Source: Candidatus Forterrea multitransposorum CG_2015-17_Forterrea_25_41
GTDB taxonomy: Archaea > Iainarchaeota > Iainarchaeia > Iainarchaeales > CSSED10-239
Reading direction: 5' to 3'
Length of the DNA: 64,000 bases
Assembly: GCA_009392915.1 (NCBI GenBank)
Contig: CP045477.1
Span: forward strand, 32,001-96,000
The translations under genes were made by a program, and so were the position numbers. A model generated the notes under the pieces. That model did no database searches, was not told the origin of the DNA, and worked only from the letters and a program-made list of their open reading frames with translations. This document shows, piece by piece, positions 2,891 to 46,273 of the stretch (positions are counted from its first letter, which is position 1; every line of letters starts with the position of its first letter).

Positions 2891-3724
2891 ATGGTTCAAG
2901 CATTAGTTTCTGCAAAAACACAAACTGTTAAAGAAATTAAAAAGAAATCTTCTATTAAAAGAAGAAATAAATTAATTGTTAAATTGATTTTAATAACTAT
3001 TGTTGCAATATTAATTGCATTGATATTAAGCAAAATAGTTGTTGAAACAAGAACTTCTTTTACAAATAATGATATTGACTTTAAATCAGTAAACTTTCAT
3101 ATACATGAAGGTTTTGAAATATTTGGAACTGATAAAAATTATTTATTAGTTTTTAATTACTATTACCAAGATACAAATTATTTATCTTCAGTAATTGATG
3201 GCCTTGTATTTTCTCAATCCATGCTTTCTGCTAAAAATAAAAATACAATTCTTTTAATTTCTGTAATTGATAATGAAAATAATCTTCTTTATTGTCAATC
3301 AAATAATGGAAATGTTTTAGAAAATATTGAACTTACAAGTGAAGAATGTTTATCTCTTTTAGATACTAATCATTCTGTAATTATGGTTAATTATCCTTTT
3401 GGAGATGTTGAAAAATCAGAAGTTGTTTTAAATTTAAATGAAAAATTATTATTAATTAATCCTAAATCAAAAGAATTTGTTTATGACTCTTTATATGTTT
3501 CTTTTAATCAAATGTATAAAGATGCTAAAATGATTGAAGATTCTTTAACAGATATTCAAAATAAATTAAGCACTTCTAAAGAAAAGTCTTTGGTTGATAA
3601 AAATATTATTGATGAAAATATTGTTGATGAAAACTTTTATGATCAAAATATTTTAATTGATGAAAATTTTTCTGATGATAATTCTTTAAACGATGATAAC
3701 TTTTCACAAGATATTAATAATTAA
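2891..3724 (+). CDS. Membrane-anchored hypothetical protein with an acidic C-terminal (I/F)DEN repeat region
   Basis: One N-terminal hydrophobic helix (LIVKLILITIVAILIALILSKIVV). The C-terminus repeats DKNIIDENIVDENFYDQNILIDENFSDDN. Confidence 0.4.
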   Translation: MVQALVSAKTQTVKEIKKKSSIKRRNKLIVKLILITIVAILIALILSKIVVETRTSFTNNDIDFKSVNFHIHEGFEIFGTDKNYLLVFNYYYQDTNYLSSVIDGLVFSQSMLSAKNKNTILLISVIDNENNLLYCQSNNGNVLENIELTSEECLSLLDTNHSVIMVNYPFGDVEKSEVVLNLNEKLLLINPKSKEFVYDSLYVSFNQMYKDAKMIEDSLTDIQNKLSTSKEKSLVDKNIIDENIVDENFYDQNILIDENFSDDNSLNDDNFSQDINN

Positions 3725-3786: not shown

Positions 3787-5157
3787 ATGTCTTCAATAAA
3801 TCTTGATAAATCAAAAGTATCAATTTATAGAGATACTAGAAAGAAATTACTTTCTCAAATCAAACCTAGTACTTCTCAAAATATAAAAGAAAAAAGATTT
3901 ATTGATAATGTTATTAAAAAAATAGAAAAGATGCCAGGACCACATTTATCTGCTGTTTGTGCAGGTTCTTTTGGAAAAGGTACTAATTTAAAAGATACAA
4001 AAGATTTTGATGTTTTTGTAATTTATCCTCCTTCTCTTGAAAAAACAAAATTTATTGAAGAAGGTTTAATGTTAGGTCAAAAAGCTTTTAAAGGATATTT
4101 TTGGGAAAAAGCATATTCTCAACATCCTTATATAAGAGGTGTAATTGACGGACATAAAGTTGAAGTTGTGCCTGCATATAAAATAGAACCTAATGAACCT
4201 ATAATTTCTGCAGTTGATAGAACTGTTTTACATTTAATGTTTGTTTTAAAAAATATGTCTGAAACACAAAAAGATGAAACTAGACTTTTAAAATATTTTT
4301 TAAAACAAATAGGGTCTTATGGTGCAGATACTTCTGTATCTGGATTTTCTGGTTATTTATGTGAACTTTTAATTCTATTTTATGGAGATTTTATAACTGT
4401 TTTAGAGAATGCTTCAAATTGGCAATATCCTATAAAATTTACTTTACTTAAAGAACAACATGTTAACTTAGCAAGATTTTCTGAAAGCTTAGTTGTAATT
4501 GATCCTATTGATGATACTAGAAATGTAGCATCTGCTGTAAGTTTAAAACAATTAAGTTTATTTATAGCTTCTTCAAGAAAATTTTTAGAAAATCCTTCTA
4601 TTGATTTCTTTAATACTAAAGTTATTCCAAAAGTTACATATCATCAATTAATAGGGAAACTTGAAAATTTTTCACTAGTAATTGTAAGTTTTGAAGTAAA
4701 AGATATGTTAAAAGAAATTATTTGGTCTAAAGTTAAAAGTAATACTTCAAAGTTAATTACTCATTTAGAATTTTCTGATTTTGATATTTTAAAATATGAA
4801 GTTTATCATAAAGAAGGTCAAGATAGATGTTATCTTGTATTATTATTAAATACTTTAGAACTTCCTAAATTTAAAAAAATTAATGGACCTTTAGTTTCTG
4901 ATTTTAAAAGTTCTCAAAATTATTTAACTAATAATCGTTCTGTACTTGGTCCATATATTAAAGAAGATAGATGGTATGTTGTAAGAAAAAGAGATAAAAC
5001 TTCTGCAAAGGCAATAATTTTAGATTTCTCACAAGTCTTTAATTTAAAATCTAAGATTTATTCTGGAACAGAGATCAATGATTTATTTTTAGAAGATGAT
5101 GACTTATCTGAATATTTAACTGATTTTTTTATTACTAAAGAGAAATTTTTAATTTAA
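3787..5157 (+). CDS. cca: CCA-adding tRNA nucleotidyltransferase, archaeal class I
   Basis: 456 aa. The nucleotidyltransferase motif GSFGKGTNLKDTKDFDVFV is typical of the archaeal CCA enzyme N-terminus. Confidence 0.8.
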   Translation: MSSINLDKSKVSIYRDTRKKLLSQIKPSTSQNIKEKRFIDNVIKKIEKMPGPHLSAVCAGSFGKGTNLKDTKDFDVFVIYPPSLEKTKFIEEGLMLGQKAFKGYFWEKAYSQHPYIRGVIDGHKVEVVPAYKIEPNEPIISAVDRTVLHLMFVLKNMSETQKDETRLLKYFLKQIGSYGADTSVSGFSGYLCELLILFYGDFITVLENASNWQYPIKFTLLKEQHVNLARFSESLVVIDPIDDTRNVASAVSLKQLSLFIASSRKFLENPSIDFFNTKVIPKVTYHQLIGKLENFSLVIVSFEVKDMLKEIIWSKVKSNTSKLITHLEFSDFDILKYEVYHKEGQDRCYLVLLLNTLELPKFKKINGPLVSDFKSSQNYLTNNRSVLGPYIKEDRWYVVRKRDKTSAKAIILDFSQVFNLKSKIYSGTEINDLFLEDDDLSEYLTDFFITKEKFLI

Positions 5158-9013: not shown

Positions 9014-12000
9014 ATGTCCGTAGAGAAATATAAAGCAACAAATGATAAAGATTTATTTGATGAAGTAGAATCTTCTAATAGAAAGTATGTTAATGAAGAT
9101 ACTATTAAAGATATTGAAGATAAATTAAAAAAATCAAGAGAAGAACATCCTTTAGAAGATGTTGAAAATTTTTCTGAAATTGATGATTCTGAAGATGATG
9201 ATTCTGAAGATGATGATAACTTAGATGAAGTTGATTTAGAAGAAAACTCTGAAGATGAAAATTCAGAAGATAATAATTCAGAAGATAATAATTCAGAAGA
9301 TAATAATTCAGAAGATAATAATTCAGAAGATAATAATTCAGAAGATAATAATTCAGAAGATAATAATTCTGAAGATAATGATATAGATGAAGCTGATTTA
9401 GAAGAAGACTCTGAAGATAATAATTTAGAAGAAGATAATGTTGAAAAAGACCTAAATGAAATTGATTCTAAAGAATCAGATTTAAAAGAAGATTTTACTA
9501 AAAACTCAAATATATCAAAAGAGATTACTAAAGATAAAGATATACCTGCTAAAAGTTCAGAAATTATAATTAAACCAGCACTTAAATTCTTAGAAGATTT
9601 ACAAGACCCTAATGTAGTTTATTTAGGTAGAAAAAAATCTGTTTTAAAACAATATGGAAAGATAGCTACAGCATATATAGGAAAAGTTGCTGAAAATCAA
9701 CAAGAAGGCAAACAAGTTAACATAGATGGTCTAAATCCACACGTTATTTTCTTAGATGGTGCTAGAGGAACAGGTAAGAGTTATCTTTTAGGGGTAATAG
9801 CAGAAGAGCTTGCAAGAACAAACCCATATATAGGGCAAATAGTAATTGATCCTGTAGGTGTTTTCTGGTCAATGAAATTTCCAAACAGAGATTCAAAAGA
9901 ATTAAAAATTTTAGAAGAATGGGGTTTAAAGGCAGAAGGTCTTAAAAACTTAAAAGTCTTTGTTCCAGAAGGTATAGTTTCTCAAGTTTCAAAAGATACT
10001 TATGATGACACTTTTTCAATGTTTCCTTCTCTTTTAACTCCAGAAGATTGGTGTTTAACTTTTGGTATTGAAAGATTTTCTCCATCAGGCTTACTTTTAG
10101 AAAAAACTTTAGAGTCTGTAAAGAAAGGATATGTTACAGGTGGAACAAAAGATGTTCCTGATGTTAAAAAAATATCAGCAAAAGGAAATCATTTTACTTT
10201 AGAAGATATTATTAACTGTCTTCAAAACAATTCTGAATTTCAATCTTCTCAAAAAGGTTATAAACCAGATTCTATAAGAGCTTTAGTTTCAAGATTTGAA
10301 GCTGCAAGATCTTGGGGTATATTTTCAGATTCTGGAACTCCTCTTTCAAAACTTTCAAGAGAAAATCAATTAACTGTGCTTGATACTTCTTTTTTAGATG
10401 AAAATATTACTGCTTTAGTTATTGGTATTTTAGCTAGAAGAATTCTTTCTGCAAGAAAACTTCTTGCAAGACAAGAAGCTGTTAAAAAATATGGTGATTC
10501 AACACAAAAAGCAGAAGAACTTTTAGAAATTGAAATTCCTCCAACATGGATGTATATTGATGAAGCACACACTTTAATTCCTTCTGGAAATTCTCAAACA
10601 CCAGCAACTGCAGGAATTATAGAGTATGTTAAGCAAGGAAGAAGACCTGGTTGTTCTTTAGTTTTTGCAACACAACAGCCTTCTGCAATAAACACTAAAG
10701 TTTTATCACAAGTTGATATATTAATCTCAAATAAATTAGTTTTTAATGATGATATTTCTGCAATTCAAAAAAGAATGCCTGCAATAATACCAAAGCAATA
10801 TAAAGAACCAAATTTTATAAAGACTTTGCCTTTTGCAACTGCTCTTGTAGGAGATAGATCAGAAGAAACTTCTAGAGCTTTTATTTTAAGAGCAGCACCA
10901 AGAAGATCTCAACATGAAGGTCGTGATGCAGAAACAATTAGAGAGATTCCTAAAAAAAATAAATCTGAAGTTTTAGAAATTGCTTTTAAAATGGTTTATG
11001 AAAAATTAGAAAAAACAAAAGAAATTAAAGTGTCTTTTGCAAAAGATATTTTAGATGTTATTAATATTAAATATAGAGGAACTGTTGAATATGATGAACT
11101 TTTAGAAAAACTTTTAGAAAAAAATGTTTTACTTAAAGAAGATCTTCTATATCTTAATGAAAATTTTTTCAAAGAATATAATCAAGAAGAAAAATTAGTT
11201 TCTAATGATTCCGAAAATACTGATGAAATAAATTCTTTAGATGAAAATGAGCTTGAAAATATTGAAGAAAATTTAGAACATGTTAAAAGTAGTGTTTCAA
11301 AAGTAAAAGTAAGAAATACTATTGCAGAAAGAATTTCAAAAGCAAATATTGAAGAAATTGCAAATCAAAATATTAAAAAATCTTTATTATTTAAACCAAA
11401 AGAAGAAATTTTAAATATTGTTTTAAAATATAGAACAATTTATAAAATAAGTTATAATGTTTATGATTCACAAGATTCTTTTAAGACAAATACTTGTTTT
11501 GTGGATTCTGTAACTGGTGAGTTTATACATTTTTTAAATGGAGAGTTTAAGATTTCTTCTGGTTTAAATGTTTTAGATAAAATTAATGAAGATTATTTAG
11601 AGATTCTTTATCTTTTAAATAAACAACATACTTTGTTTTCTTTAAATCAAGAAACAGATATTGAAGAAAAAGATTTAATTGAAATGATTGATTCTTTTAA
11701 AGAATTAAATTTAATTACTGTTAAAAATAATTCTGGTATAGATGTTTATAAAATAGATTCAAAAGCTTTTGATATTCCTTTTAACCCGACTATTAAAGTT
11801 CTTTCATCTTTAGATGTTTTACCTTTAAAAAAACAAGATGTTGAGTTTTTAGAATCAATAAACTATTCTTTAAATGTTATTCAAGATAATTTAAAGAAAT
11901 TATGGGGTGAAATTGAATTTACTTCTCTTCAAGAAATCTATTGGCCAATTTGGCAAATTACTTATAATAATAAAGAAGGAAATAGAGTTTTAAAAGTAGA

Positions 12001-12025
12001 TGCTGTAACAGGCAAAAAAATGTGA
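9014..12025 (+). CDS. Large DUF87/HerA-FtsK-like P-loop ATPase with a poly-acidic repeat N-terminus and a ~400-aa uncharacterised C-terminal region
   Basis: Walker A VIFLDGARGTGKSYLLG. Walker B WMYIDEAHTLIP. A HerA-like ATQQPSAINTKVLSQVDILISNKL motif. The N-terminal ~190 aa are D/E/S-rich with (SEDNN)n. There is no recognisable nuclease partner. Confidence 0.6.
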   Translation: MSVEKYKATNDKDLFDEVESSNRKYVNEDTIKDIEDKLKKSREEHPLEDVENFSEIDDSEDDDSEDDDNLDEVDLEENSEDENSEDNNSEDNNSEDNNSEDNNSEDNNSEDNNSEDNNSEDNDIDEADLEEDSEDNNLEEDNVEKDLNEIDSKESDLKEDFTKNSNISKEITKDKDIPAKSSEIIIKPALKFLEDLQDPNVVYLGRKKSVLKQYGKIATAYIGKVAENQQEGKQVNIDGLNPHVIFLDGARGTGKSYLLGVIAEELARTNPYIGQIVIDPVGVFWSMKFPNRDSKELKILEEWGLKAEGLKNLKVFVPEGIVSQVSKDTYDDTFSMFPSLLTPEDWCLTFGIERFSPSGLLLEKTLESVKKGYVTGGTKDVPDVKKISAKGNHFTLEDIINCLQNNSEFQSSQKGYKPDSIRALVSRFEAARSWGIFSDSGTPLSKLSRENQLTVLDTSFLDENITALVIGILARRILSARKLLARQEAVKKYGDSTQKAEELLEIEIPPTWMYIDEAHTLIPSGNSQTPATAGIIEYVKQGRRPGCSLVFATQQPSAINTKVLSQVDILISNKLVFNDDISAIQKRMPAIIPKQYKEPNFIKTLPFATALVGDRSEETSRAFILRAAPRRSQHEGRDAETIREIPKKNKSEVLEIAFKMVYEKLEKTKEIKVSFAKDILDVINIKYRGTVEYDELLEKLLEKNVLLKEDLLYLNENFFKEYNQEEKLVSNDSENTDEINSLDENELENIEENLEHVKSSVSKVKVRNTIAERISKANIEEIANQNIKKSLLFKPKEEILNIVLKYRTIYKISYNVYDSQDSFKTNTCFVDSVTGEFIHFLNGEFKISSGLNVLDKINEDYLEILYLLNKQHTLFSLNQETDIEEKDLIEMIDSFKELNLITVKNNSGIDVYKIDSKAFDIPFNPTIKVLSSLDVLPLKKQDVEFLESINYSLNVIQDNLKKLWGEIEFTSLQEIYWPIWQITYNNKEGNRVLKVDAVTGKKM
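9251..9375 (+). repeat. Near-perfect 15-bp tandem repeat (gaagataataattca) in about 8 copies, encoding (SEDNN)n
   Basis: Seen directly: seven identical 15-mers from 9266 to 9370, with degenerate flanking units. The repeat keeps the reading frame. Confidence 0.9.
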
Positions 12026-13328: not shown

Positions 13329-13398
13329 AATTATTTTTTCCTATATCTTTAATATACGATATTACTATCAAAGAGATTATAAATATTTATCTTTATAA

Positions 13399-15465
13399 AT
13401 GTTTTGGTTTTCTTTTTTATATATGTATCTTAATAAAAATGCTATTTCTCCATTAATAGCAAGCATTTTAATTATTGTTGTAGTTGTTGCAGTTATTGGT
13501 GTGATTCTATTATGGGGTAAAAACTTTACAAATGAAAGTTTAACTTCCACTTATACTTTTTCACAAGATAAAACTGTTTCTGATTTTGTTTGGCAAGATG
13601 ATATTACTGGTAAAAATCTTTTTATAAAAAACACACATATATCATTAAGTAAAACTATTATTGGTTATAAAATAAACAGTTCCTTAGATTATGCTTATCT
13701 TAATAAATATCATTATCTTGATGAATCTTTTTTATTATCTAAAAATTCCATTGCTCAATTAACTTTAGGTTGTGTTCCAGAAAAGAATTTTTCAATTGAA
13801 CTTTTAACAGACTCTAATGAATATATTTCTTTTCCTGTCACTTCTAAGTTTTTTGATCCTTCAGAATGTACTTTTTCTTTTTCAATAACTTCTCCTTTGG
13901 AAAATTCAATCAATGCTTTAAATTCTAGTATTTCATTTACTTCTGAAATTTTAAATTCTTCAGGTACTCCTTCTTGTACTTGGATTTCTTCAATTGATGG
14001 TACTTTTTCAACATCTTGTGATGCAACTTATTCTTCTTTATCTTCTGGTTCTCATGATATTAATTTAGTTGTTGAAGATTCTGGTGATATTTTAACACAA
14101 TCAACTTCAATTATTGTAAAAGATTCTTTAGAAAGTATTATTTCTACTCCTTCAAATTCATCAAATCATTTATTTAGTGATACAATTTCATTTAGTGGTA
14201 CTGCAGATAATAATTTTGGTTCTCACACTTGTTCTTGGACTTCTTCTTTAGATGGTTCTCTTTCAAGTGATTGTAGTTTTAGTTCTAGTTTATCTCCAGG
14301 CACACATACTATTACTTTACAAGTAACTGATTCTCTTGAAACAGCATCTTCAAATATTTCTATAGATGTTTATGCTTTATTAGTTGCTTCTGTTTCTCTT
14401 CCTGCTAATAATTCTACAAAATCTTTAGGAAGTCCTATCTCTTTTTCATCAAGCATTTCTGGAGGCGATGGATCTTATTCTTGTAGTTGGACAGATAATG
14501 GTTCTCCTTTAAGTTCTAGTTGTTCATTTAGTCATACTTATCCACAAGGAAGTTGGTCTGAATATCAAGATATGCCTCAAGGTAGAGATTATCATGATTG
14601 TGTAGGTGTTGGTGATAAACTATATTGTTTTGGAGGAGATGATTCTACTTATAATGTAGAAAGAACTACTCAAATTTATAATTCTACAACAAATACTTGG
14701 TCTTTAGGTGCAAATATGCCTGCAGATAGAGAGCTTCCAGCATGTAGTTATTATAATGGAATAATTTATTGTATAGGAGGATTTAATAGTTCTTGGGATT
14801 ATGTTAATTCAAATTATGCTTATAATATTTCTACAAATTCTTGGTCTAGTAAAACTTCTATGCCAACAGTAAGAGCTGAACATGATTGTACTGCCTTAGA
14901 TGGAAAAATTTATTGTTTTGGTGGAAATAAAGATGGTGGAGGTGCAAGTAATCTTCTTGAAATATATAATATTTCAACAAATTCTTGGTCAACAGGTACA
15001 AGTTCACCTTCAGGAAAAGCAAATCATAATTGTGAGGGTTTAAATAATAAGGTTTATTGTATTGGTGGTACAACTACTACTTTAATATATGATGTTTTAT
15101 CTGATTCATGGTCTACAGGTACAACTATCTCAACATCAAAATCATCTGGAGCTTCTGATTTATATGGTACTAAAATTTATTATGGAGGAGGTTCTTCTGC
15201 TGCACTTTTAGTTTACGATACTGTTTTAAATAGTTGGTCAACTCTTGCTAGTTTACCTTATTCTAACAGATCTTATATAGGTTGTGGAATTGCAGATAAT
15301 ACTTTTTATTGTGCAGGAGGAGATTCAAGTCAAGGTAGAGAAACATACATGGATAAATTACATGGATATTCTATAGGTGCTACAGGAACACATGAAATTG
15401 AATTAAATGTAAGTGATGGTTATGGTCAAACTGCTTCTAATACAATAAATATTAATGTTCAATAG
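13399..15465 (+). CDS. Archaeal pilin-N (class III signal peptide) protein with Cys-containing Ig-like repeats and a Kelch-type beta-propeller
   Basis: The N-terminus NKNAISPLIASILIIVVVVAVIGVILLW matches the archaeal type IV pilin N-terminal domain. There are four repeats of ...SCSWTxxxDGSxSSxCSFS.... Kelch-like repeats follow (YCFGG...YN..TN.WS, YCIGG..., KIYCFGG...). Confidence 0.6.
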   Translation: MFWFSFLYMYLNKNAISPLIASILIIVVVVAVIGVILLWGKNFTNESLTSTYTFSQDKTVSDFVWQDDITGKNLFIKNTHISLSKTIIGYKINSSLDYAYLNKYHYLDESFLLSKNSIAQLTLGCVPEKNFSIELLTDSNEYISFPVTSKFFDPSECTFSFSITSPLENSINALNSSISFTSEILNSSGTPSCTWISSIDGTFSTSCDATYSSLSSGSHDINLVVEDSGDILTQSTSIIVKDSLESIISTPSNSSNHLFSDTISFSGTADNNFGSHTCSWTSSLDGSLSSDCSFSSSLSPGTHTITLQVTDSLETASSNISIDVYALLVASVSLPANNSTKSLGSPISFSSSISGGDGSYSCSWTDNGSPLSSSCSFSHTYPQGSWSEYQDMPQGRDYHDCVGVGDKLYCFGGDDSTYNVERTTQIYNSTTNTWSLGANMPADRELPACSYYNGIIYCIGGFNSSWDYVNSNYAYNISTNSWSSKTSMPTVRAEHDCTALDGKIYCFGGNKDGGGASNLLEIYNISTNSWSTGTSSPSGKANHNCEGLNNKVYCIGGTTTTLIYDVLSDSWSTGTTISTSKSSGASDLYGTKIYYGGGSSAALLVYDTVLNSWSTLASLPYSNRSYIGCGIADNTFYCAGGDSSQGRETYMDKLHGYSIGATGTHEIELNVSDGYGQTASNTININVQ

Positions 15466-15517
15466 ACTTTATATAAAATAAATATGTTTTTAAACATTAA
15501 CTCTATATAATTATATA

Positions 15518-16375
15518 ATGAACTATAAAATTATATTTTTATTTTTAACATTAATTATATTAACTCCAGGGATTTTTTCTCATGTTAATTTATCAGTAGA
15601 TCCTTCTGTTTCAAATAATACTGTTTATTTATCAAAAAATATTTCAAAAGATGTTTTATTTAATTATACTTCAAATTATTCTTCAACAATTAATAATACT
15701 TATAGAGCTGAATATGATTTAAAAATATATTCTCAAGAACTAAAAGAAATAGATTTATCTTTATCAAAAACAGAAGAATATTTTGTTTCAGATGTCTTTT
15801 CATCTTTTGCTTTAAATATAAGAAGTTTAAATTATATTGATCAAACAATTAATTTAAGAATAAAAGTTTCAGTCTATGATTCTTTAAATAATTTGGTTGA
15901 TAGTGATTATTTATTTTTAAAAATAATTTCAAATAATTCTGAATATGAATTTTCAGAGTCTCCAATAAATAAAGTTCCAGAATATAAAGGTTATTCTTTA
16001 TCTAGAGATAAGATGATACTTTTAAATTATTTAGATAAAGATAAGATTTCAATTAAAAATCATGTAGATTATTCTTTTGTATATGATGTTAATTGTACTT
16101 CAAATAGTAAAGATCTTTCTTTAGATTTAAGATATGATGGAGATAATAAACATATTTTAGAAGTTTCAATAGCTAATAATTCTGTTCAAGAAGATTTATT
16201 TTATATATCTTGTTATGCTTTTAATAAAGATGATATTAAAGACATTAGAACAATTACTGTTAATTATTTAAATCAAGATATTAATGTTAGTGATGAAACT
16301 ATTATTGAAGAAGAAGTTATAGAAGATAACAAAATTAAAACTTTTTTTAAAAATATTTTTGAAAAATTAAAATAA
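15518..16375 (+). CDS. Secreted hypothetical protein (signal peptide, N/S/D-rich)
   Basis: N-terminal hydrophobic signal MNYKIIFLFLTLIILTPGIFS; no catalytic motif. Confidence 0.4.
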   Translation: MNYKIIFLFLTLIILTPGIFSHVNLSVDPSVSNNTVYLSKNISKDVLFNYTSNYSSTINNTYRAEYDLKIYSQELKEIDLSLSKTEEYFVSDVFSSFALNIRSLNYIDQTINLRIKVSVYDSLNNLVDSDYLFLKIISNNSEYEFSESPINKVPEYKGYSLSRDKMILLNYLDKDKISIKNHVDYSFVYDVNCTSNSKDLSLDLRYDGDNKHILEVSIANNSVQEDLFYISCYAFNKDDIKDIRTITVNYLNQDINVSDETIIEEEVIEDNKIKTFFKNIFEKLK

Positions 16376-16915: not shown

Positions 16916-17746
16916 ATGAATGAAATAATAAGTTATATAATAATTGGTATTTTACAAGGGGTAGTTGAATGGCTTCCTATAAGTTCTCAAGGAAACTTAA
17001 TGGTTTATTTATCAAATGTTTTAAATTTATCTTCTCAATTAAGTTTAAATTATTCTATTCTTTTACACATAGGTACTCTTTTAGCAGCTATTGTTTATTT
17101 TTATAAAGAAATTAAATCTCTTTTAACTGTTAAAAATATTTCTTTACTTTTTAAATATAATTTTAAATTATTAAAAATTAAAGAAAGTAATTTAGATAAA
17201 GATTTTTCTTACTTAAGATTTATTTTTATAACAGTTATTGTAACTCTTTTAATTTCAGGTCCAATTTATTTTTTAATAAGTGATGGAATAAATAATTTCA
17301 ATATACTTTTAATAAATTTAATTATTGGTCTATTATTATTTATTACTGGTTTTTTAATATTCTTTTCAAGAAAAATATTTTCAAAAAAACCTGTTCTTTC
17401 AATAAAAAATTCTTTTCTTTTAGGTTTATTTCAAGGTTTTTCAATACTTCCAGGGTTAAGTAGAAGTGGGCTTACAACTTCTTTACTTCTTTTTAGAGGT
17501 TTTAGTCCAGAGAAAGCTTTCAGAATTAGTTTTTTAGTTTCAATTCCAACTATTTTTATTGGAGAAATAGCACTTTTAGTTTTTAATGGTTTATTTTTCT
17601 CTCCATATATTTTAATTTCAATAGTTGTTTCTTTTATTGTTGGTTATTTTACAATTGATCTTTTGATTAAATTTGCAAAGAAAATTAATTTTTCATATTT
17701 TTGTTTTATTTTAGGATTTATATATATTCTAACTTATTTTATTTAA
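16916..17746 (+). CDS. uppP: Undecaprenyl/dolichyl-diphosphatase, UppP/BacA family
   Basis: GILQGVVEWLPISSQGNL (compare the UppP motif EGLTEFLPVSSTGHL) and a later LSRSGLT motif. Polytopic membrane protein of 276 aa. Confidence 0.7.
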   Translation: MNEIISYIIIGILQGVVEWLPISSQGNLMVYLSNVLNLSSQLSLNYSILLHIGTLLAAIVYFYKEIKSLLTVKNISLLFKYNFKLLKIKESNLDKDFSYLRFIFITVIVTLLISGPIYFLISDGINNFNILLINLIIGLLLFITGFLIFFSRKIFSKKPVLSIKNSFLLGLFQGFSILPGLSRSGLTTSLLLFRGFSPEKAFRISFLVSIPTIFIGEIALLVFNGLFFSPYILISIVVSFIVGYFTIDLLIKFAKKINFSYFCFILGFIYILTYFI

Positions 17747-18320
17747 ATTCTAATAATATTCCTTTAATTCTTTCATATGTGATTTTAGGATCATTCAATC
17801 TTATTAGTAATTCATTTATGTGATTTTTATTATTTTTTAATTTTTTAATCAAAACATTTGTTATATTTTCTTTTTTAATTTTAGGTATTTTTTTTAAGAA
17901 TTTCGCAAAATTAATTATTATTTCTCTTGCTTCTTTTGAATTATAATTAAGAGAAACTAATGATATTATTTCTTTTGCTTTCTTAGAAGAAACTTCTTTA
18001 TTGATTAAAAACTTTAAATATATTTTTTTTTGTGCTGTAGTTAGTTTCTCTTCTTCGACAACTTTTCTTTTACTAACTTTTTTTAAGATTTCTTCTTCTT
18101 TTTTTAAACTGTTAAAAAACTGTTTTACACTAAACTTATTTTCTTCAATAGATTTTTTTATTCTTTCATAAATAATAGGATCTTTTTTAATGGTTTTTGT
18201 TAAAAGATTAATTTCGTTTATAGTTAAGTCTAGCCTATAAAGTTCAGGATATTTTTTATCCATTTTAACTAAAACTTCTTTTGTTCTTTTTAATGCTCTA
18301 TTATTTATATTTCTTGGCAT
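17739..18320 (-). CDS. Lysine-rich hypothetical protein
   Basis: 193 aa, K/E-rich; no motif recognised. Confidence 0.3.
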   Translation of the reverse strand: MPRNINNRALKRTKEVLVKMDKKYPELYRLDLTINEINLLTKTIKKDPIIYERIKKSIEENKFSVKQFFNSLKKEEEILKKVSKRKVVEEEKLTTAQKKIYLKFLINKEVSSKKAKEIISLVSLNYNSKEAREIIINFAKFLKKIPKIKKENITNVLIKKLKNNKNHINELLIRLNDPKITYERIKGILLEFK

Positions 18321-41303: not shown

Positions 41304-41846
41304 ATGTTAACTTTTTTTAAAAAAATTAAAAGAGATTTGAAAACTAAAAAAAAAATAAAAGAATCTCTTTATTTTTTATTATTTTTTATAATTTCTTTTT
41401 CTCTTATTTATTTATTATTATCAAAAACCTTAATCTATAATTTTATAAACTATTTTTATGGTTCTCTTTCAAGTATTATTCTTAATATTTTTTATGGAAT
41501 TAATACTTCTTTTTATTATGATTTTATAGAACAAGTAACTTTTCTAATAATTCCAAGTATAGATTATCCTGTTGCAATTGTTTTCTTATGTACTGGTATT
41601 TTAGAATTTTCTTTAATTGTAAGTGCTATTGTTTCAACTATTGGTTTTTCTTTAAGAAAGAAAATAAAATGGGTATTAATTTCTTCTTTCCTTGTAATTA
41701 TTTTTAATCTTTTAAGAATAACTTTTACAATATTTATAATAGATTATTTTAATTTAGAAATAGCAGATTTTTTCCATGGTTTTTTATTTAGATTATTTTT
41801 AGTAATTATTGTTATTGGTACTTATTATTTTTTCTTAAAATCTTAA
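41304..41846 (+). CDS. Exosortase/archaeosortase-family membrane protein (small)
   Basis: Candidate catalytic triad in the conserved order: Cys (FLCTGILEFS), Arg (NLLRIT) and His (FFHGFLF). 180 aa, polytopic. Confidence 0.45.
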   Translation: MLTFFKKIKRDLKTKKKIKESLYFLLFFIISFSLIYLLLSKTLIYNFINYFYGSLSSIILNIFYGINTSFYYDFIEQVTFLIIPSIDYPVAIVFLCTGILEFSLIVSAIVSTIGFSLRKKIKWVLISSFLVIIFNLLRITFTIFIIDYFNLEIADFFHGFLFRLFLVIIVIGTYYFFLKS

Positions 41847-43129: not shown

Positions 43130-46100
43130 ATGAACTATAAATATTTTTTTGTATTTTTATTAGTAGTTTTATTTTCATCAATGGTATTTTCATACACAAT
43201 TGGTTTTGATTATGCTGAAGTTAGAACTACAAGTTATCCTAACTATCTTAATTATCAATATGCTCATTACTATGATAATATTGATCTAAGATATGGTGTT
43301 TATGGAAGTGGAATTTCTTCTCCAGTAACAATAATTGTTTCTCCAAAAGTTTATGGAATAACAACTACTGGTCAAAGAGTCTTTGTTCATAATATACAAA
43401 CTCATTCTTTTTCAATGAATCCTTCTTCTTTTTATACTTATAGTTATAATCCAATGTTTTCTTTTGATCCTGCATATCAAAGTTATGAAGTTGTTTTAGA
43501 TCTTCAAAGTTCAGATGGATCTTTTAATAATTCTGTAAGTAGATATGTTTATTCTCAAGGAACAAATCCAAACCCTGGAGGAGATGATCCTACAGGTGAT
43601 GATCCTAATGTAGTTAGTTGTGATGATTTTTATGTTTCAGGAATGGAAGATATTTATTTAGATGAAGATTCAAGAGAATATTATAATCTTTATTTAGTAA
43701 ATTCTGTTGACTTGCCACTTACAATAACTTCAGTTACAGTTTCTCCAAATAATCCTACTAACTTAGAAATTGAAGATATTACTTATCCTTTTACAGTTTC
43801 TGCTCTTCAAACAAGAAGTGCACAAATTGAACTTTTTACAGATACAGTTTCTTCTGATTATTCAAATAGTTTTCAAATAGAAGTTAAAGGTAAATATGAT
43901 AATTCTTTAACTTGTGAAAAAACATATAATGTTAATTATAGAATACTAGATGCTGAACTTGAAAATAATGGTTCTTGTAGTGATATAAGAATTTTAGATG
44001 ATTATTTTACAATGAGTGATAATTCTTCTAAAACTTTTGAAATTGAAGTTTCAAATGCTTCTCAAGATTATTATTTTGAAGTTGATGATATTGATTTAGA
44101 TACTACAAATGATTCAATAATTGAAGCTAGTGTTAGAAACACAATTGATAAAATATATACAGATTCTTCTAAAATTTTAAAAATAAATGTTTCTTCAGAT
44201 GACACTTCTTTTTATAGAACTGAAAAAATTGATTTAGAACTAACAGGTTATTTAAAAAGAGAAAACAGAGAAGATAAAAAATGTAGAATAAGAGAAGATG
44301 TTTCAATAAGAGTTTCTCCAGATTCTTCAACTGGAAATACTTCAAATGAATGTGATGATATAAAAATATATACAAGAGATGTTTTCCAAGATTCTCAAAT
44401 AACAGAAAACTACTCTCTTCAAGAGGGTTTTTATATTTATAATGGAACTAATAAAAAATTTACTGTATCAGGTATTAACTATAAAGACAATACTATGTAT
44501 GCAGATATCTTTTCAAAATCTTTTGATTATACTCTTTATCCTAGATCCTCTAATGCTTTAAATTTTGATATAAGAACAAGTGAAGTTTCAGAAAATAAAC
44601 TTTCAAATGCAGAAATTTCTATTCAAGGATATTTTGAAGGTGGACTTTCTTGTAGTTATTCAGATATAACTTCAAACTTTAATTTAACTATAAGAGAAGA
44701 AAATGATTTTTGTTCAAATGTAGGTATTTATGATGACAGTTTTGTTGAAGGTGAAAATTATTTTACAGTTTATAATAACACTAATAAAGACTTTACTGTA
44801 AATGATATTATTTCTCAAAATTCAGTTAACTCAAATGTAGGTGTGATTGATTCTTCTTTTAAAGTTTTAAAAGATTCACAAAAAACTTTTAGAGTTGGTT
44901 CTTCAGGAAATGGTAGTTTTGAGCTTTTAGCTAAAGGTGTTTTTTCAGATGGCACTTCTTGTGACTATACTCAAACAAGCAGTGGTTATTTCAATAGTGA
45001 TTCTGGTTATGATTTTTCAGATACTTCTTGTGAATTTGAATTTAATTATCCAAATGTAAAATATATCTCTTTAAACGGAGACTCTCTAAATTTTGATTTT
45101 AGAAACTTAACTGGAAAATCTGGTGAGATTAGACTTTCTGCAGTTGGTGCTGTAATTGAAGATCCAATTATTAAGTTTTCTTCATATTCATCTTTTAATA
45201 AAGAAATAGATCTTTTAAATATTAAAAATCCAAAAATGGTTCTTTATACAATTGAAATTTACGGTTGTTCTAAAAAATCATATTTTACAAATCTTTATCC
45301 TTTAGGAAATTCTATTCAAGGAGATGTTTCATTTTTAACATATCCTAGTAATTTAATTTCAACTAAAGATAAATTTATAAGTTCTTTTTCACTTAAAAAC
45401 TCAAGTAGTTTTTCAGAAGATGTTGAAATTAAATTTTCAGGTTTTACAAGTGCATTTAATTTTGTATCTTCTCCTTATCCATTAAACCCAAATACTTTCT
45501 CATCTTCAGATAATGTTTCAACAGTTACAATAAATCCAAACTCTACAAAAAATATTTATTTTGGAGTTGATGTTTTAGAAAATGCAGAATATAAAAAATA
45601 TAATGGATATATTGAAGTTTATAGTAATAATAAATTATTATTTAAAGAGCCTTTATCAATAGATAGATCAATTACTACTAATAATTTATTAGTAAATACT
45701 ATGGTTGAAAAGACATCTGTTAAAAATACTGTTCTTTTAACATTTACTTTTGAAAACAAATTACCTGACCTTACAAGAGAACTTTATTTATCTTTTGAAG
45801 ACGAGAATAGTTTTGAAGTAGATGGTAATAGAAATATATCTGTTGCACCATTAAGTGTACTTGAAAGAAGCTTTACTGTTAAATATAATGAAGGTTCTTT
45901 ATTTAAGTATAATTTAATAGATACAGATAATTCTTCTCTTGCATATTCTGGAGAAGTAGATTTAAAAGAAATTGATAATTCTTCAAATCTTTTATCTGGA
46001 TTTTTTACTCTTTCAGATACAAAAGGATTTATATTTGCAATTGTTCTTATATTACTTATAGCTTTAATTATTTTCTTAATAGTTTATGGAGATAAATCTA

Positions 46101-46273
46101 GAGCTAAAAGAAAACAAGAAACTAAATCAGTTTTAGAAACACAAGAAAAAATAAAAGAAGAAATTAGAAAAGATAATTTTTCTAATATTACTAAGTCTGA
46201 GATTATAATAGGAAATAAGCCTATTATAAAGCCTGCAGAACCAAGACAGATTACTTTAGGTGAGCTTGATTAA
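43130..46273 (+). CDS. Large secreted cell-surface protein (S-layer/adhesin candidate) with a C-terminal TM anchor
   Basis: 1047 aa. Signal peptide, a Tyr-rich N-terminal module, a PNPGGDDPTGDDPN linker, then long beta-rich S/T/N-rich repeats. C-terminal hydrophobic helix GFIFAIVLILLIALIIFLIVYG plus a basic tail. Confidence 0.55.
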   Translation: MNYKYFFVFLLVVLFSSMVFSYTIGFDYAEVRTTSYPNYLNYQYAHYYDNIDLRYGVYGSGISSPVTIIVSPKVYGITTTGQRVFVHNIQTHSFSMNPSSFYTYSYNPMFSFDPAYQSYEVVLDLQSSDGSFNNSVSRYVYSQGTNPNPGGDDPTGDDPNVVSCDDFYVSGMEDIYLDEDSREYYNLYLVNSVDLPLTITSVTVSPNNPTNLEIEDITYPFTVSALQTRSAQIELFTDTVSSDYSNSFQIEVKGKYDNSLTCEKTYNVNYRILDAELENNGSCSDIRILDDYFTMSDNSSKTFEIEVSNASQDYYFEVDDIDLDTTNDSIIEASVRNTIDKIYTDSSKILKINVSSDDTSFYRTEKIDLELTGYLKRENREDKKCRIREDVSIRVSPDSSTGNTSNECDDIKIYTRDVFQDSQITENYSLQEGFYIYNGTNKKFTVSGINYKDNTMYADIFSKSFDYTLYPRSSNALNFDIRTSEVSENKLSNAEISIQGYFEGGLSCSYSDITSNFNLTIREENDFCSNVGIYDDSFVEGENYFTVYNNTNKDFTVNDIISQNSVNSNVGVIDSSFKVLKDSQKTFRVGSSGNGSFELLAKGVFSDGTSCDYTQTSSGYFNSDSGYDFSDTSCEFEFNYPNVKYISLNGDSLNFDFRNLTGKSGEIRLSAVGAVIEDPIIKFSSYSSFNKEIDLLNIKNPKMVLYTIEIYGCSKKSYFTNLYPLGNSIQGDVSFLTYPSNLISTKDKFISSFSLKNSSSFSEDVEIKFSGFTSAFNFVSSPYPLNPNTFSSSDNVSTVTINPNSTKNIYFGVDVLENAEYKKYNGYIEVYSNNKLLFKEPLSIDRSITTNNLLVNTMVEKTSVKNTVLLTFTFENKLPDLTRELYLSFEDENSFEVDGNRNISVAPLSVLERSFTVKYNEGSLFKYNLIDTDNSSLAYSGEVDLKEIDNSSNLLSGFFTLSDTKGFIFAIVLILLIALIIFLIVYGDKSRAKRKQETKSVLETQEKIKEEIRKDNFSNITKSEIIIGNKPIIKPAEPRQITLGELD

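Follow-up and report, generated by a model that had tools for sequence, protein, structure and literature searches.

A modular type IV pilin-like protein with a Kelch propeller nested in its PKD stalk: a probable surface or pilus-borne adhesin of the DPANN archaeon Candidatus Forterrea multitransposorum

How do DPANN archaea take hold of the cells with which they live? To our knowledge, partner finding in these organisms is largely unexplained: pili have been seen joining such cells to their hosts, and the adhesive parts have not been identified. The question is raised here by one gene in a 64,000-nucleotide stretch of the genome of Candidatus Forterrea multitransposorum (contig CP045477.1, positions 32,001 to 96,000; hereafter the window), whose product starts like an archaeal type IV pilin, carries a Kelch beta-propeller near its end (hereafter the Kelch protein) and is annotated by NCBI as a hypothetical protein (locus tags GW835_). 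The window has a G+C content of ~25% and holds archaeal housekeeping genes (TBP, AglB/STT3, a ribosomal protein operon, SecY, enolase, AMP phosphorylase), the AMP-phosphorylase gene fitting the nucleotide-salvage pathway described for Ca. Forterrea (PMC5905446). This member of the Diapherotrites (DPANN) from Crystal Geyser is predicted to be host-dependent and to have large extracellular interaction proteins (PMC5905446), in agreement with the suggestion of a first-pass annotation, made from the letters of the window alone, that the organism might be an episymbiont. We propose that the Kelch protein is probably a modular type IV pilin-like adhesin, borne on the cell surface or on a pilus.

The first-pass annotation had described a 688-codon open reading frame (ORF) at 13399..15465 (+). 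This ORF exists, and its start had to be moved. The upstream ATG is ATA in L020, a diverged strain whose protein is 86% identical, and a 2-nt indel breaks the frame there as well; conservation runs from the ATG at 13423 onward, and the NCBI and ENA gene calls let the orthologs P0001 and P0002 begin at MYLNKNA. As neither the upstream ATG nor its frame is kept in L020, the 688-aa start was rejected. The likely product is a protein of 680 aa with the leader MYLNKNA and a mature part from ISPLIASILIIVVVVAVIGVILLWGKNFTNESL, and residue numbers refer throughout to this form; the eight codons at the front of the longer ORF are probably not translated, judging from the strain comparison and the ortholog calls. 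That the gene is real follows from the presence of the identical protein on 17 public contigs and from purifying selection on its stalk (ratio of nonsynonymous to synonymous divergence, dN/dS, 0.05-0.3); further orthologs are found at 98% and 86% identity.

The case for a pilin rests on the N-terminal module (N-module). The protein carries the motif NKNAISPLIASILIIVVVVAVIGVILLW, which occurs nowhere else in the window, and its leader of 7 aa has Ala at -1, Asn at -2 and Lys at -3, followed by I-S-P at +1 to +3. A helix begins right after the predicted cleavage site (ISPLIASILIIVVVVAVIGVILLW) and was modelled by AlphaFold2 (AF2) over residues 10-33 in the full-length protein and over residues 9-46 when the N-module was modelled separately. 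Pilin_N was the top Pfam match in three of the five N-termini tested, and among eight weak matches returned by a profile search of the PDB with the N-module, seven were archaeal pilins or archaellins (best E=0.028). The separate AF2 model (predicted local distance difference test, pLDDT, 79) consists of the helix 9-46 and a seven-strand sandwich. When it was compared with the PDB using Foldseek, the top match was 8fk7, the type IV pilus of Pyrobaculum calidifontis (E=5.8e-5, 141 aligned columns), which was also the only match at E<=1e-3; the top 20 further contained the archaeal pilus or archaellum subunits 8q30, 6w8u, 6w8x, 6nav and 9eq7, and the template modelling (TM) scores obtained with the module were modest, at 0.38-0.46. 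Since the alignment with 8fk7 takes in helix and beta-sandwich together, we count this fold match in favor of a pilin. Homology of the N-module to archaeal type IV pilins, in both sequence and fold, is well supported. Going by the family consensus, the leader is predicted to be cut after Ala7 by a prepilin-type peptidase.

The relatives of the module follow the same pattern. A family profile built on the first ~160 residues retrieved 2,491 cluster representatives, 299 of them at E<=1e-10, and the module was N-terminal in every case. The processing site, read in the top 150 matches, conforms to the consensus [KR][KR][A/S/G]/[ILV][S/E]P (the slash marking the point of cleavage here and below) with a median leader of 7 residues; in the 130 relatives over which the site was counted, position -1 was A, S or G in 129, and position -3 is K/R. 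This is a class III (prepilin) pattern. The motifs S-P-L-I-A and WGKxFT recur together with the [KR][KR][ASG] site in 130 of the 150 top relatives. By size, 93 of these 150 proteins reach at least 300 aa and 48 are pilin-sized (<=200 aa); profile matches to pilin-sized proteins go down to E=1e-49, and several of the latter are named 'flagellin-like' by JGI. Orthologs of the Kelch protein retain KNA at the site, and the distant ortholog P0388 has RKS. Stand-alone homologs of ~150-160 aa adjoin T2SSF genes, as on a related contig where two T2SSF platform genes are followed by four such genes. Scanning reference-genome contigs with the N-module profile gave three loci only, none of them with machinery context.

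Other pilin genes, which the first-pass annotation had proposed to look for, are present in the genome itself, in a locus that comprises two T2SSF platform genes, three pilins of 147-159 aa and a minor-pilin-like gene cluster. The three pilins start with MKNKKA/LSPLIAT, MKIKKA/ISPLIATILLIVVAVALIAIVVAWGKSFTTDSL (MKIKKA/ISPLIAT) and MKKA/ISPIIAT. The T2SSF protein P0304 (NCP72500.1, NCP79677.1, NCP97967.1 and NCQ07443.1) and the Kelch protein (NCP72454.1, NCP79629.1, NCP98300.1 and NCQ07396.1) are common to the same four NCBI assemblies, and in three of these they lie 46-48 accession numbers apart. Taken together, the prepilin site of the family, the profile and fold matches to solved archaeal pilins and the locus combining T2SSF and pilin genes support the class III, pilin-type N-terminus that had been proposed at first pass. 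The minor-pilin-like cluster lies on the opposite strand (L018, 13984-15412, minus strand) and consists of four small ORFs (116, 134, 78 and 164 aa), each starting with a hydrophobic helix. One of them begins LLKGQ/VSLEF and gives a faint Class_IIIsignal match; on these sequence features the four are candidate minor pilins.

Behind the pilin module, the full AF2 model (mean pLDDT 87, above 90 in the propeller) shows two complete PKD domains of eight strands each and a third that is interrupted by the propeller (Table 1). The whole protein scores 34.4 bits with PF00801 (PKD) against a cutoff of 23.5, and the best-matching stretch lies in the second domain (ORF residues 278-324). The first-pass annotation had the propeller simply follow the repeats; it is instead inserted in the third PKD domain, with six strands of that domain before it and two after it. 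The back part aligns with the ends of the first and second PKD domains and matches C-terminal profile positions of PKD and Big_9. The front piece gave no PKD match when scanned alone, and the spliced sequence 319-376+649-680 aligns with both complete domains and scores 22.3 bits with PF00801 across the junction. The DSSP strand pattern, this splice test and conservation all lead us to the nested arrangement, which is old and not an artefact, since the ortholog P0388 retains the entire design, both halves of the third PKD domain included, at 34% identity.

The propeller has six blades, about the number counted at first pass: Kelch_1 matches at E=2.8e-35 (119.9 bits against a cutoff of 20.1), and in Foldseek the predicted structure matched Keap1, KLHL and designed propellers of six blades (E 1e-18 to 1e-20; target TM-scores 0.80-0.84). 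The four SCSWT-type repeats previously reported come down to three CxW...C repeats (residues 185-199, 270-284 and 354-367). The 18 Cys residues form nine close pairs, which would be expected to form disulfides; five of the pairs belong to Kelch blades, three to the PKD domains and the remaining one to the pilin domain. In five of the six blades the pair takes the form CxxxxxxxxC on adjacent strands (e.g. DCVGVGDKLYC); these pairs, presumably stabilising disulfides, are present in the 86% strain and absent from P0388, which makes them a recent lineage-specific addition. The local pairing of the Cys residues, the presence of 17 N-glycosylation sequons in the protein and the AglB gene in the window suggest a location outside the cell. 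The propeller is the presumed ligand-binding head.

Table 1. Features of the Kelch gene and its immediate flanks (window coordinates; residues of the 680-aa form)
Feature	Position	Strand	Basis
TATA-like elements TTATAAAT and TTTATAAA, candidate promoter	13377-13384 and 13392-13399	+	sequence; both conserved in L020
Eight codons MFWFSFLY that open the longer ORF; probably untranslated	13399..13422	+	L020 comparison; ortholog calls
Predicted class III (prepilin-type) leader MYLNKNA	13423..13443	+	family consensus; predicted cleavage after Ala7
Pilin cassette (mature pilin module)	13436..13919	+	blastn against P0004 contig L014: 484 nt, 96.7% identical
Hydrophobic N-terminal alpha-helix ISPLIASILIIVVVVAVIGVILLWGK, pilin alpha-1 or membrane anchor	13444..13521	+	AF2
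Linker or helix extension with two N-glycosylation sequons (NFT, NES)	13522..13587	+	low pLDDT in full model, helical in N-module model
Beta-sandwich globular domain of pilin module, Cys117-Cys149 pair	13588..13872	+	AF2 strands span 56-141
PKD domain 1, residues 151-234, Cys185-Cys199	13873..14124	+	eight AF2 strands; PF00801 17.9 bits alone
PKD domain 2, residues 235-318, Cys270-Cys284	14125..14376	+	eight strands; PF00801 19.3 bits alone
PKD domain 3 front, residues 319-376, strands 1-6, Cys354-Cys367	14377..14550	+	AF2 strands 321-372
Six-bladed Kelch beta-propeller, residues 377-648, inside PKD domain 3	14551..15366	+	Kelch_1, AF2, Foldseek
PKD domain 3 back, residues 649-680, strands 7-8, GTHEIELNVSDGYGQTASNTININVQ	15367..15462	+	AF2 strands 655-664, 670-679
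Downstream 285-aa ORF, hydrophobic N-terminus MNYKIIFLFLTLIILTPGIFS	15518..16375	+	sequence

The same module carries other heads elsewhere. Already in a first protein search, several matches had only the N-terminal half in common with the Kelch protein and ended in FGE-sulfatase, Lcl_C/DUF1566, Gly_rich or cadherin-like parts. We therefore scanned 97 long family members against Pfam. Laminin_G_3, a ConA-like lectin, was found in 23 of the 97, followed by GLUG (15), the RCC1 propeller and Lcl_C (7 each), the DUF5122 propeller (6), Peptidase_M26_N (5) and Pentaxin (3), with NHL, FGE-sulfatase, CHB_HEX_C_1 and Kelch in two members each; Pilin_N reached E<=1e-3 in 8 of the 97. The grafted parts are thus mainly binding domains: ConA-like lectins, propellers and CLec.

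Two sister proteins are verified targets of diversity-generating retroelements (DGRs). In P0004 the scaffold is the same and the head is Lcl_C; its gene immediately precedes those for bAvd and a reverse transcriptase, and 21 of the 23 mismatches between its 3' end (the variable repeat, VR) and the template repeat (TR) fall at TR adenines. The second lies in the genome of the Kelch protein itself, in a DGR (L009, 1959-5835) ~7 kb upstream of the window start and ~17 kb from the Kelch gene. Its genes run in the order 457-aa target, 128-aa ORF, bAvd and RVT_1; the target has a pilin-type N-terminus with KRKA/ISPLIATILLIVVAVAIIAIIVSWGKGFTN at the processing site and ends in an FGE-sulfatase/CLec domain, and TR adenines account for 13 of the 15 mismatches between VR (3212-3335) and TR (4437-4560). 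The element is adjoined by a HicAB pair and a DDE transposase; a transposase next to a DGR is also a feature of Ca. Forterrea (PMC5905446). Neither a VR/TR pair nor an adjacent reverse transcriptase or Avd gene accompanies the Kelch gene, which also lacks similarity to the upstream DGR target, so that DGR targeting of this gene was rejected. In a limited literature search, we found no paper that links archaeal DGR targets with pilin-type N-termini.

Comparison of the Kelch gene with that of P0004 by blastn delimited the shared part at nucleotide level (pilin cassette in Table 1). On either side of it there is essentially no similarity to the P0004 gene, whose leader, stalk and head differ, and from these sharp mosaic edges we conclude that the pilin module behaves as a recombining cassette. 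Two further sequences were observed among the relatives. In Ca. ainarchaeum sp. STF1_257 (L012, 1984-2166), leader and helix agree with those of the Kelch gene, down to the FWFSFLYMY codons upstream, but the sequence continues differently past WGK and reaches a stop after 67 aa, which looks like a truncated or recombinant pilin cassette. In the genome under study, a 506-aa protein with CHB_HEX_C_1 and Fn3_assoc domains (L013, 7446-8966) adjoins the paralog P0005; its start, MMQKG/QASIENLILIGG, is by its sequence a class III leader of a second kind (Epd/EppA-like, with Glu at +5), so that the genome would encode modular pilin-like proteins of two signal classes, and it may be the 'putative chitobiase' hotspot of single nucleotide polymorphisms in the Forterrea paper.

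The head of the Kelch protein also diverges faster than the rest of it. We compared one allele pair, the query and the 86% strain, for amino acid identity and for nonsynonymous (dN) and synonymous (dS) divergence. The N-domain and PKD segments are 96-99% identical (dN 0.005-0.034, dS 0.02-0.16, dN/dS 0.05-0.46), with 97% identity in the N-domain and a dN of 0.005-0.016 in the stalk, as compared to 71% in the Kelch head measured against P0002 (dN 0.188, dS 0.357, dN/dS 0.53). Five of six flanking genes resemble the stalk values (identity 95-99%, dN 0.003-0.026, dS 0.07-0.23, dN/dS 0.02-0.30). The sixth is the exception, with 81% identity and a dN of 0.098; it encodes p193, a lysine-rich protein of 193 aa without Pfam match at 17739-18320 (minus strand). 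Within the head, substitutions affect 37% of loop positions and 20% of strand positions (Fisher p=0.005). Loops of the top face are the usual ligand-binding surface of the Keap1 and KLHL propellers, and the fast, loop-biased change seen in these sequences fits a binding surface under diversifying pressure. The idea of an adhesive pilus or attachment protein, already put forward in the first-pass annotation, is strengthened by the lectin, propeller and DGR-diversified CLec heads on the same module and by this fast evolution of the Kelch head relative to the stalk.

How might such a protein reach its place and act? The leader and the hydrophobic helix would target it to the membrane, where a prepilin-type (class III) peptidase would cut after Ala7. 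The pilin module would then remain as a membrane anchor or enter a type IV pilus built by the T2SSF platform and the pilin locus ~46 genes away, where the most plausible place for so bulky a subunit would be the tip, or scattered positions on the shaft. The stalk consists of two and a half PKD domains and presents the propeller, held in a loop of the third, outward; the loop face of the propeller would then bind a ligand, most likely a surface protein or glycan of a host or partner cell. The pilin module is reused for other heads, among the relatives as well as within this genome; some of these heads are DGR-hypermutated, and the exchange takes place by recombination at the module boundary.

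Several observations weigh against this proposal or against parts of it. Position -2 of the leader is Asn, a residue shared by 2 of the 130 relatives, as compared to K/R in 126 of them; some archaeal prepilin peptidases are sensitive to position -2, and cleavage may therefore be inefficient or absent. The curated models stay below their cutoffs, PF07790 (Pilin_N) reaching 16.7 bits against 25.2, though it is the top Pfam match, and TIGR02537 (arch_flag_Nterm) 12.2 bits against 20. Neither an A24 prepilin peptidase nor a T2SSE/FlaI-type ATPase was found in the ~135 kb of genome examined (the window, 10 kb on either side of it, the T2SSF locus and the P0005 locus; the longest assembled contig measures 840 kb), and motif scans of all DNA retrieved for the T2SSE Walker A and the A24 GxGDxK returned UvrA and Cdc48 only. 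One candidate for the prepilin peptidase, the product of an unannotated gene of 218 aa that adjoins the T2SSF genes directly, was discarded because it is soluble, lysine-rich and free of transmembrane segments. The Kelch gene lies outside the pilus locus, and its beta-sandwich shows no BLASTP-detectable similarity to the pilins encoded there; similarity is detectable only to other modular members, e.g. 33% over 135 aa with the DGR-target protein of the genome. As to the head, its dN/dS of 0.53 is below 1 and its dS is raised as well, and the pattern could reflect recombination import of a divergent allele or relaxed constraint, not positive selection. Lastly, one stand-alone relative is named FlaF/FlaG-like by JGI, and members of the FlaF/FlaG family are membrane-anchored and not polymerised.

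Some of these observations bear directly on whether the protein ever enters a filament. In the main alternative it would be a stalked adhesin anchored in the membrane, with the pilin-like helix, cleaved or not, as the anchor and the head projecting from the envelope; FlaF/FlaG and the class III-signal sugar-binding proteins of Sulfolobus (bindosome) provide a model. The stand-alone position of the gene outside the type IV pilus locus, the off-consensus Asn at -2, a beta-sandwich unlike that of the locus pilins and the FlaG/FlaF-like label of a relative all speak for this arrangement, as does the extension of ~500 residues, which would be hard to fit in a pilus shaft. However, the pilin module has been kept complete, with the high N-domain identity between strains (97%) and cassette identity between genes (96.7%) reported above, and over 37 aa its helix shares 62% identity with the helix of the 159-aa pilin encoded in the T2SSF locus. 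Moreover, archaeal stand-alone pilin genes distant from the machinery are common (PMC4858521), and bulky bacterial modular pilins do get incorporated, probably at tips (PMC8179133). An adhesin that is purely membrane-anchored is thus possible but in our view unlikely, and a modular pilin-like adhesin, at the surface or on a pilus, remains our preferred identification.

That the protein is an ordinary Sec-dependent type II membrane protein, with a pilin likeness that is merely compositional (an I/L/V-rich helix in an AT-rich genome), is improbable. The sub-threshold scores of the curated pilin models and the marginal single sequence matches to the PDB would be in keeping with it, but the S-P-L-I-A, WGKxFT and [KR][KR][ASG] motifs recur throughout the top relatives and in pilins adjoining T2SSF genes, of this genome as well as of a relative, the 8fk7 match spans helix and beta-sandwich, and profile matches to pilin-sized proteins reach E=1e-49. 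Very improbable is a secreted or anchored carbohydrate-active enzyme, the propeller acting as a sugar mutarotase (NanM/YjhT-like) or resembling galactose oxidase: Pfam NANM (PF24996) does match with 53.9 bits against a cutoff of 45, the NCBIfam NanM, YjhT and mutarotase models match at E 1e-11 to 1e-13 and several Kelch homologs are labelled 'N-acetylneuraminic acid mutarotase' by JGI, but the NCBIfam scores are far under their cutoffs (47.8 against 416, 44.5 against 256, 43.3 against 243), which led us to reject a NanM-type enzyme, the NANM match overlaps much stronger generic Kelch matches, protein-binding Kelch domains of six blades (such as Keap1 and KLHL) give the best structural matches, the loops of the head change quickly from strain to strain, as a conserved active site would not, sister proteins bear lectin and CLec heads on the same scaffold, and galactose oxidase has seven blades.

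The surroundings of the gene were inspected as well. The pair of TATA-like elements upstream of its start is a candidate archaeal promoter of a leaderless or short-leader mRNA, a weak indication in a genome of 25% GC. The first-pass annotation had noted that a second secreted protein follows immediately: a 285-aa ORF with a hydrophobic N-terminus does follow at once and, on that feature, its product is probably secreted or membrane-anchored, but it does not behave as a conserved partner. Searches of Pfam, NCBIfam and the PDB gave no match for it. It is syntenic in close strains, with 95% identity in L020 (dN/dS 0.30); as the gene is missing next to P0004, P0005 and P0388, a family-level functional partnership was rejected. 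In the 52 nt between the two genes (15466-15517), TATA-like elements occur alongside a short inverted repeat with a run of T (TGTTTTTAAACA), and the 285-aa gene may therefore have a promoter of its own. Two genes upstream of the Kelch gene, at 9014-12025 (+), lies a DUF87/HerA-like ATPase of 1003 aa with an N-terminal acidic tandem repeat (NSEDN many times), probably the repeat-bearing 'secretion-related ATPase' shown as an assembly problem by Probst & Banfield 2018 (Fig. 1F). A role for it as pilus ATPase found no support: it is not encoded beside the paralogs or the distant ortholog, and except for synteny in close strains we found no connection with the pilin gene. Farther along the window, a 180-aa protein (41304-41846, +) gives a weak Exosortase_EpsH match and is possibly archaeosortase-like; ~1.3 kb past its gene, with three small ORFs between, a 1047-aa protein without Pfam match (43130-46273, +) is possibly a large surface protein.

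If the proposal is correct, it offers a concrete candidate for partner binding, a pilin module with its own binding head in an ultra-small DPANN archaeon, and it extends the modular-pilin concept to archaea. More tentatively, the family may form a partner-recognition system of this DPANN lineage, in which a recombining pilin module carries Kelch, RCC1, NHL, ConA-like and DGR-hypermutated CLec heads, exchanged through homologous recombination at a sharp edge of the module, and the Kelch pilin is an allele-rich host-recognition adhesin on a pilus. Were this so, host range would depend on the set of heads on the cassette, and the archaeal system would parallel tail-fibre switching in phages and the DGR-diversified pilus adhesins of Bacteroides. 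The family links type IV pili, DGRs and recombination-driven population structure, which are usually studied apart, and the propeller inside a PKD domain, an arrangement still kept at 34% identity, illustrates domain insertion neatly.

Modular pilins as such are known. In bacteria they include PilB (vWA) and PilC (ConA-like lectin) of Streptococcus sanguinis and CofB (Raynaud et al. 2021, PMC8179133), and for archaea, large class III-signal proteins have been described, as have stand-alone pilin genes that rely on a common machinery (PMC4858521). The survey of modular pilins used a bacterial signature only, and the word 'archaea' is absent from the paper (PMC8179133). What is new here is that a pilin module of archaeal type is combined with a PKD stalk and a PKD-nested Kelch head. 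The Kelch protein has the modular-pilin layout, a pilin module of ~150 aa followed by three PKD domains and a Kelch propeller, and resembles the bacterial proteins in its predicted class III signal and in a small pilin module onto which an adhesin module not specific to pili is grafted; the ConA-like lectin, frequent among the bacterial proteins (PMC8179133), is the commonest head of the archaeal family as well. It differs from them in having a module of the archaeal Pilin_N type, not of the IPR012902/N-methyl-Phe type, in the multi-PKD stalk between module and head and in the nesting of the Kelch domain in a PKD domain. With archaeal type IV pilins it has in common a short basic leader, a small residue at -1, a helix starting [ILV]-S-P-[LIV]-I-[AG] and a beta-sandwich. 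In contrast to these proteins of about 130-170 aa it measures 680 aa, scores below the model cutoffs, has Asn at -2 and carries a globular domain that falls in a subfamily of modular proteins and not with the locus pilins.

Among bacterial tip adhesins, PilY1/PilC likewise use a beta-propeller as the adhesive element on a type IV pilus (PMC8179133). PilY1, however, is not a pilin, docks via minor pilins and has a propeller of type IPR008707, whereas the propeller described here is covalently fused to a pilin module. The fold is that of the six-bladed Kelch propellers of Keap1 and KLHL, from which the head differs by its low identity (20-27%), its predicted extracellular location, its Cys pairs in five blades, its nesting in a PKD domain and its lack of BTB/BACK. 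A constant anchor with a variable binding head is also the design of DGR variable proteins such as Bordetella phage Mtd, Treponema TvpA and archaeal AvpA (PMC5006420), and of the DGR-diversified type V pilus adhesins of Bacteroides (bioRxiv 10.1101/2024.11.15.621889), which the sister proteins of the family resemble. In contrast to the DGR variable proteins, the head of the Kelch protein has a Kelch and not a CLec fold, and it varies by ordinary substitution or recombination.

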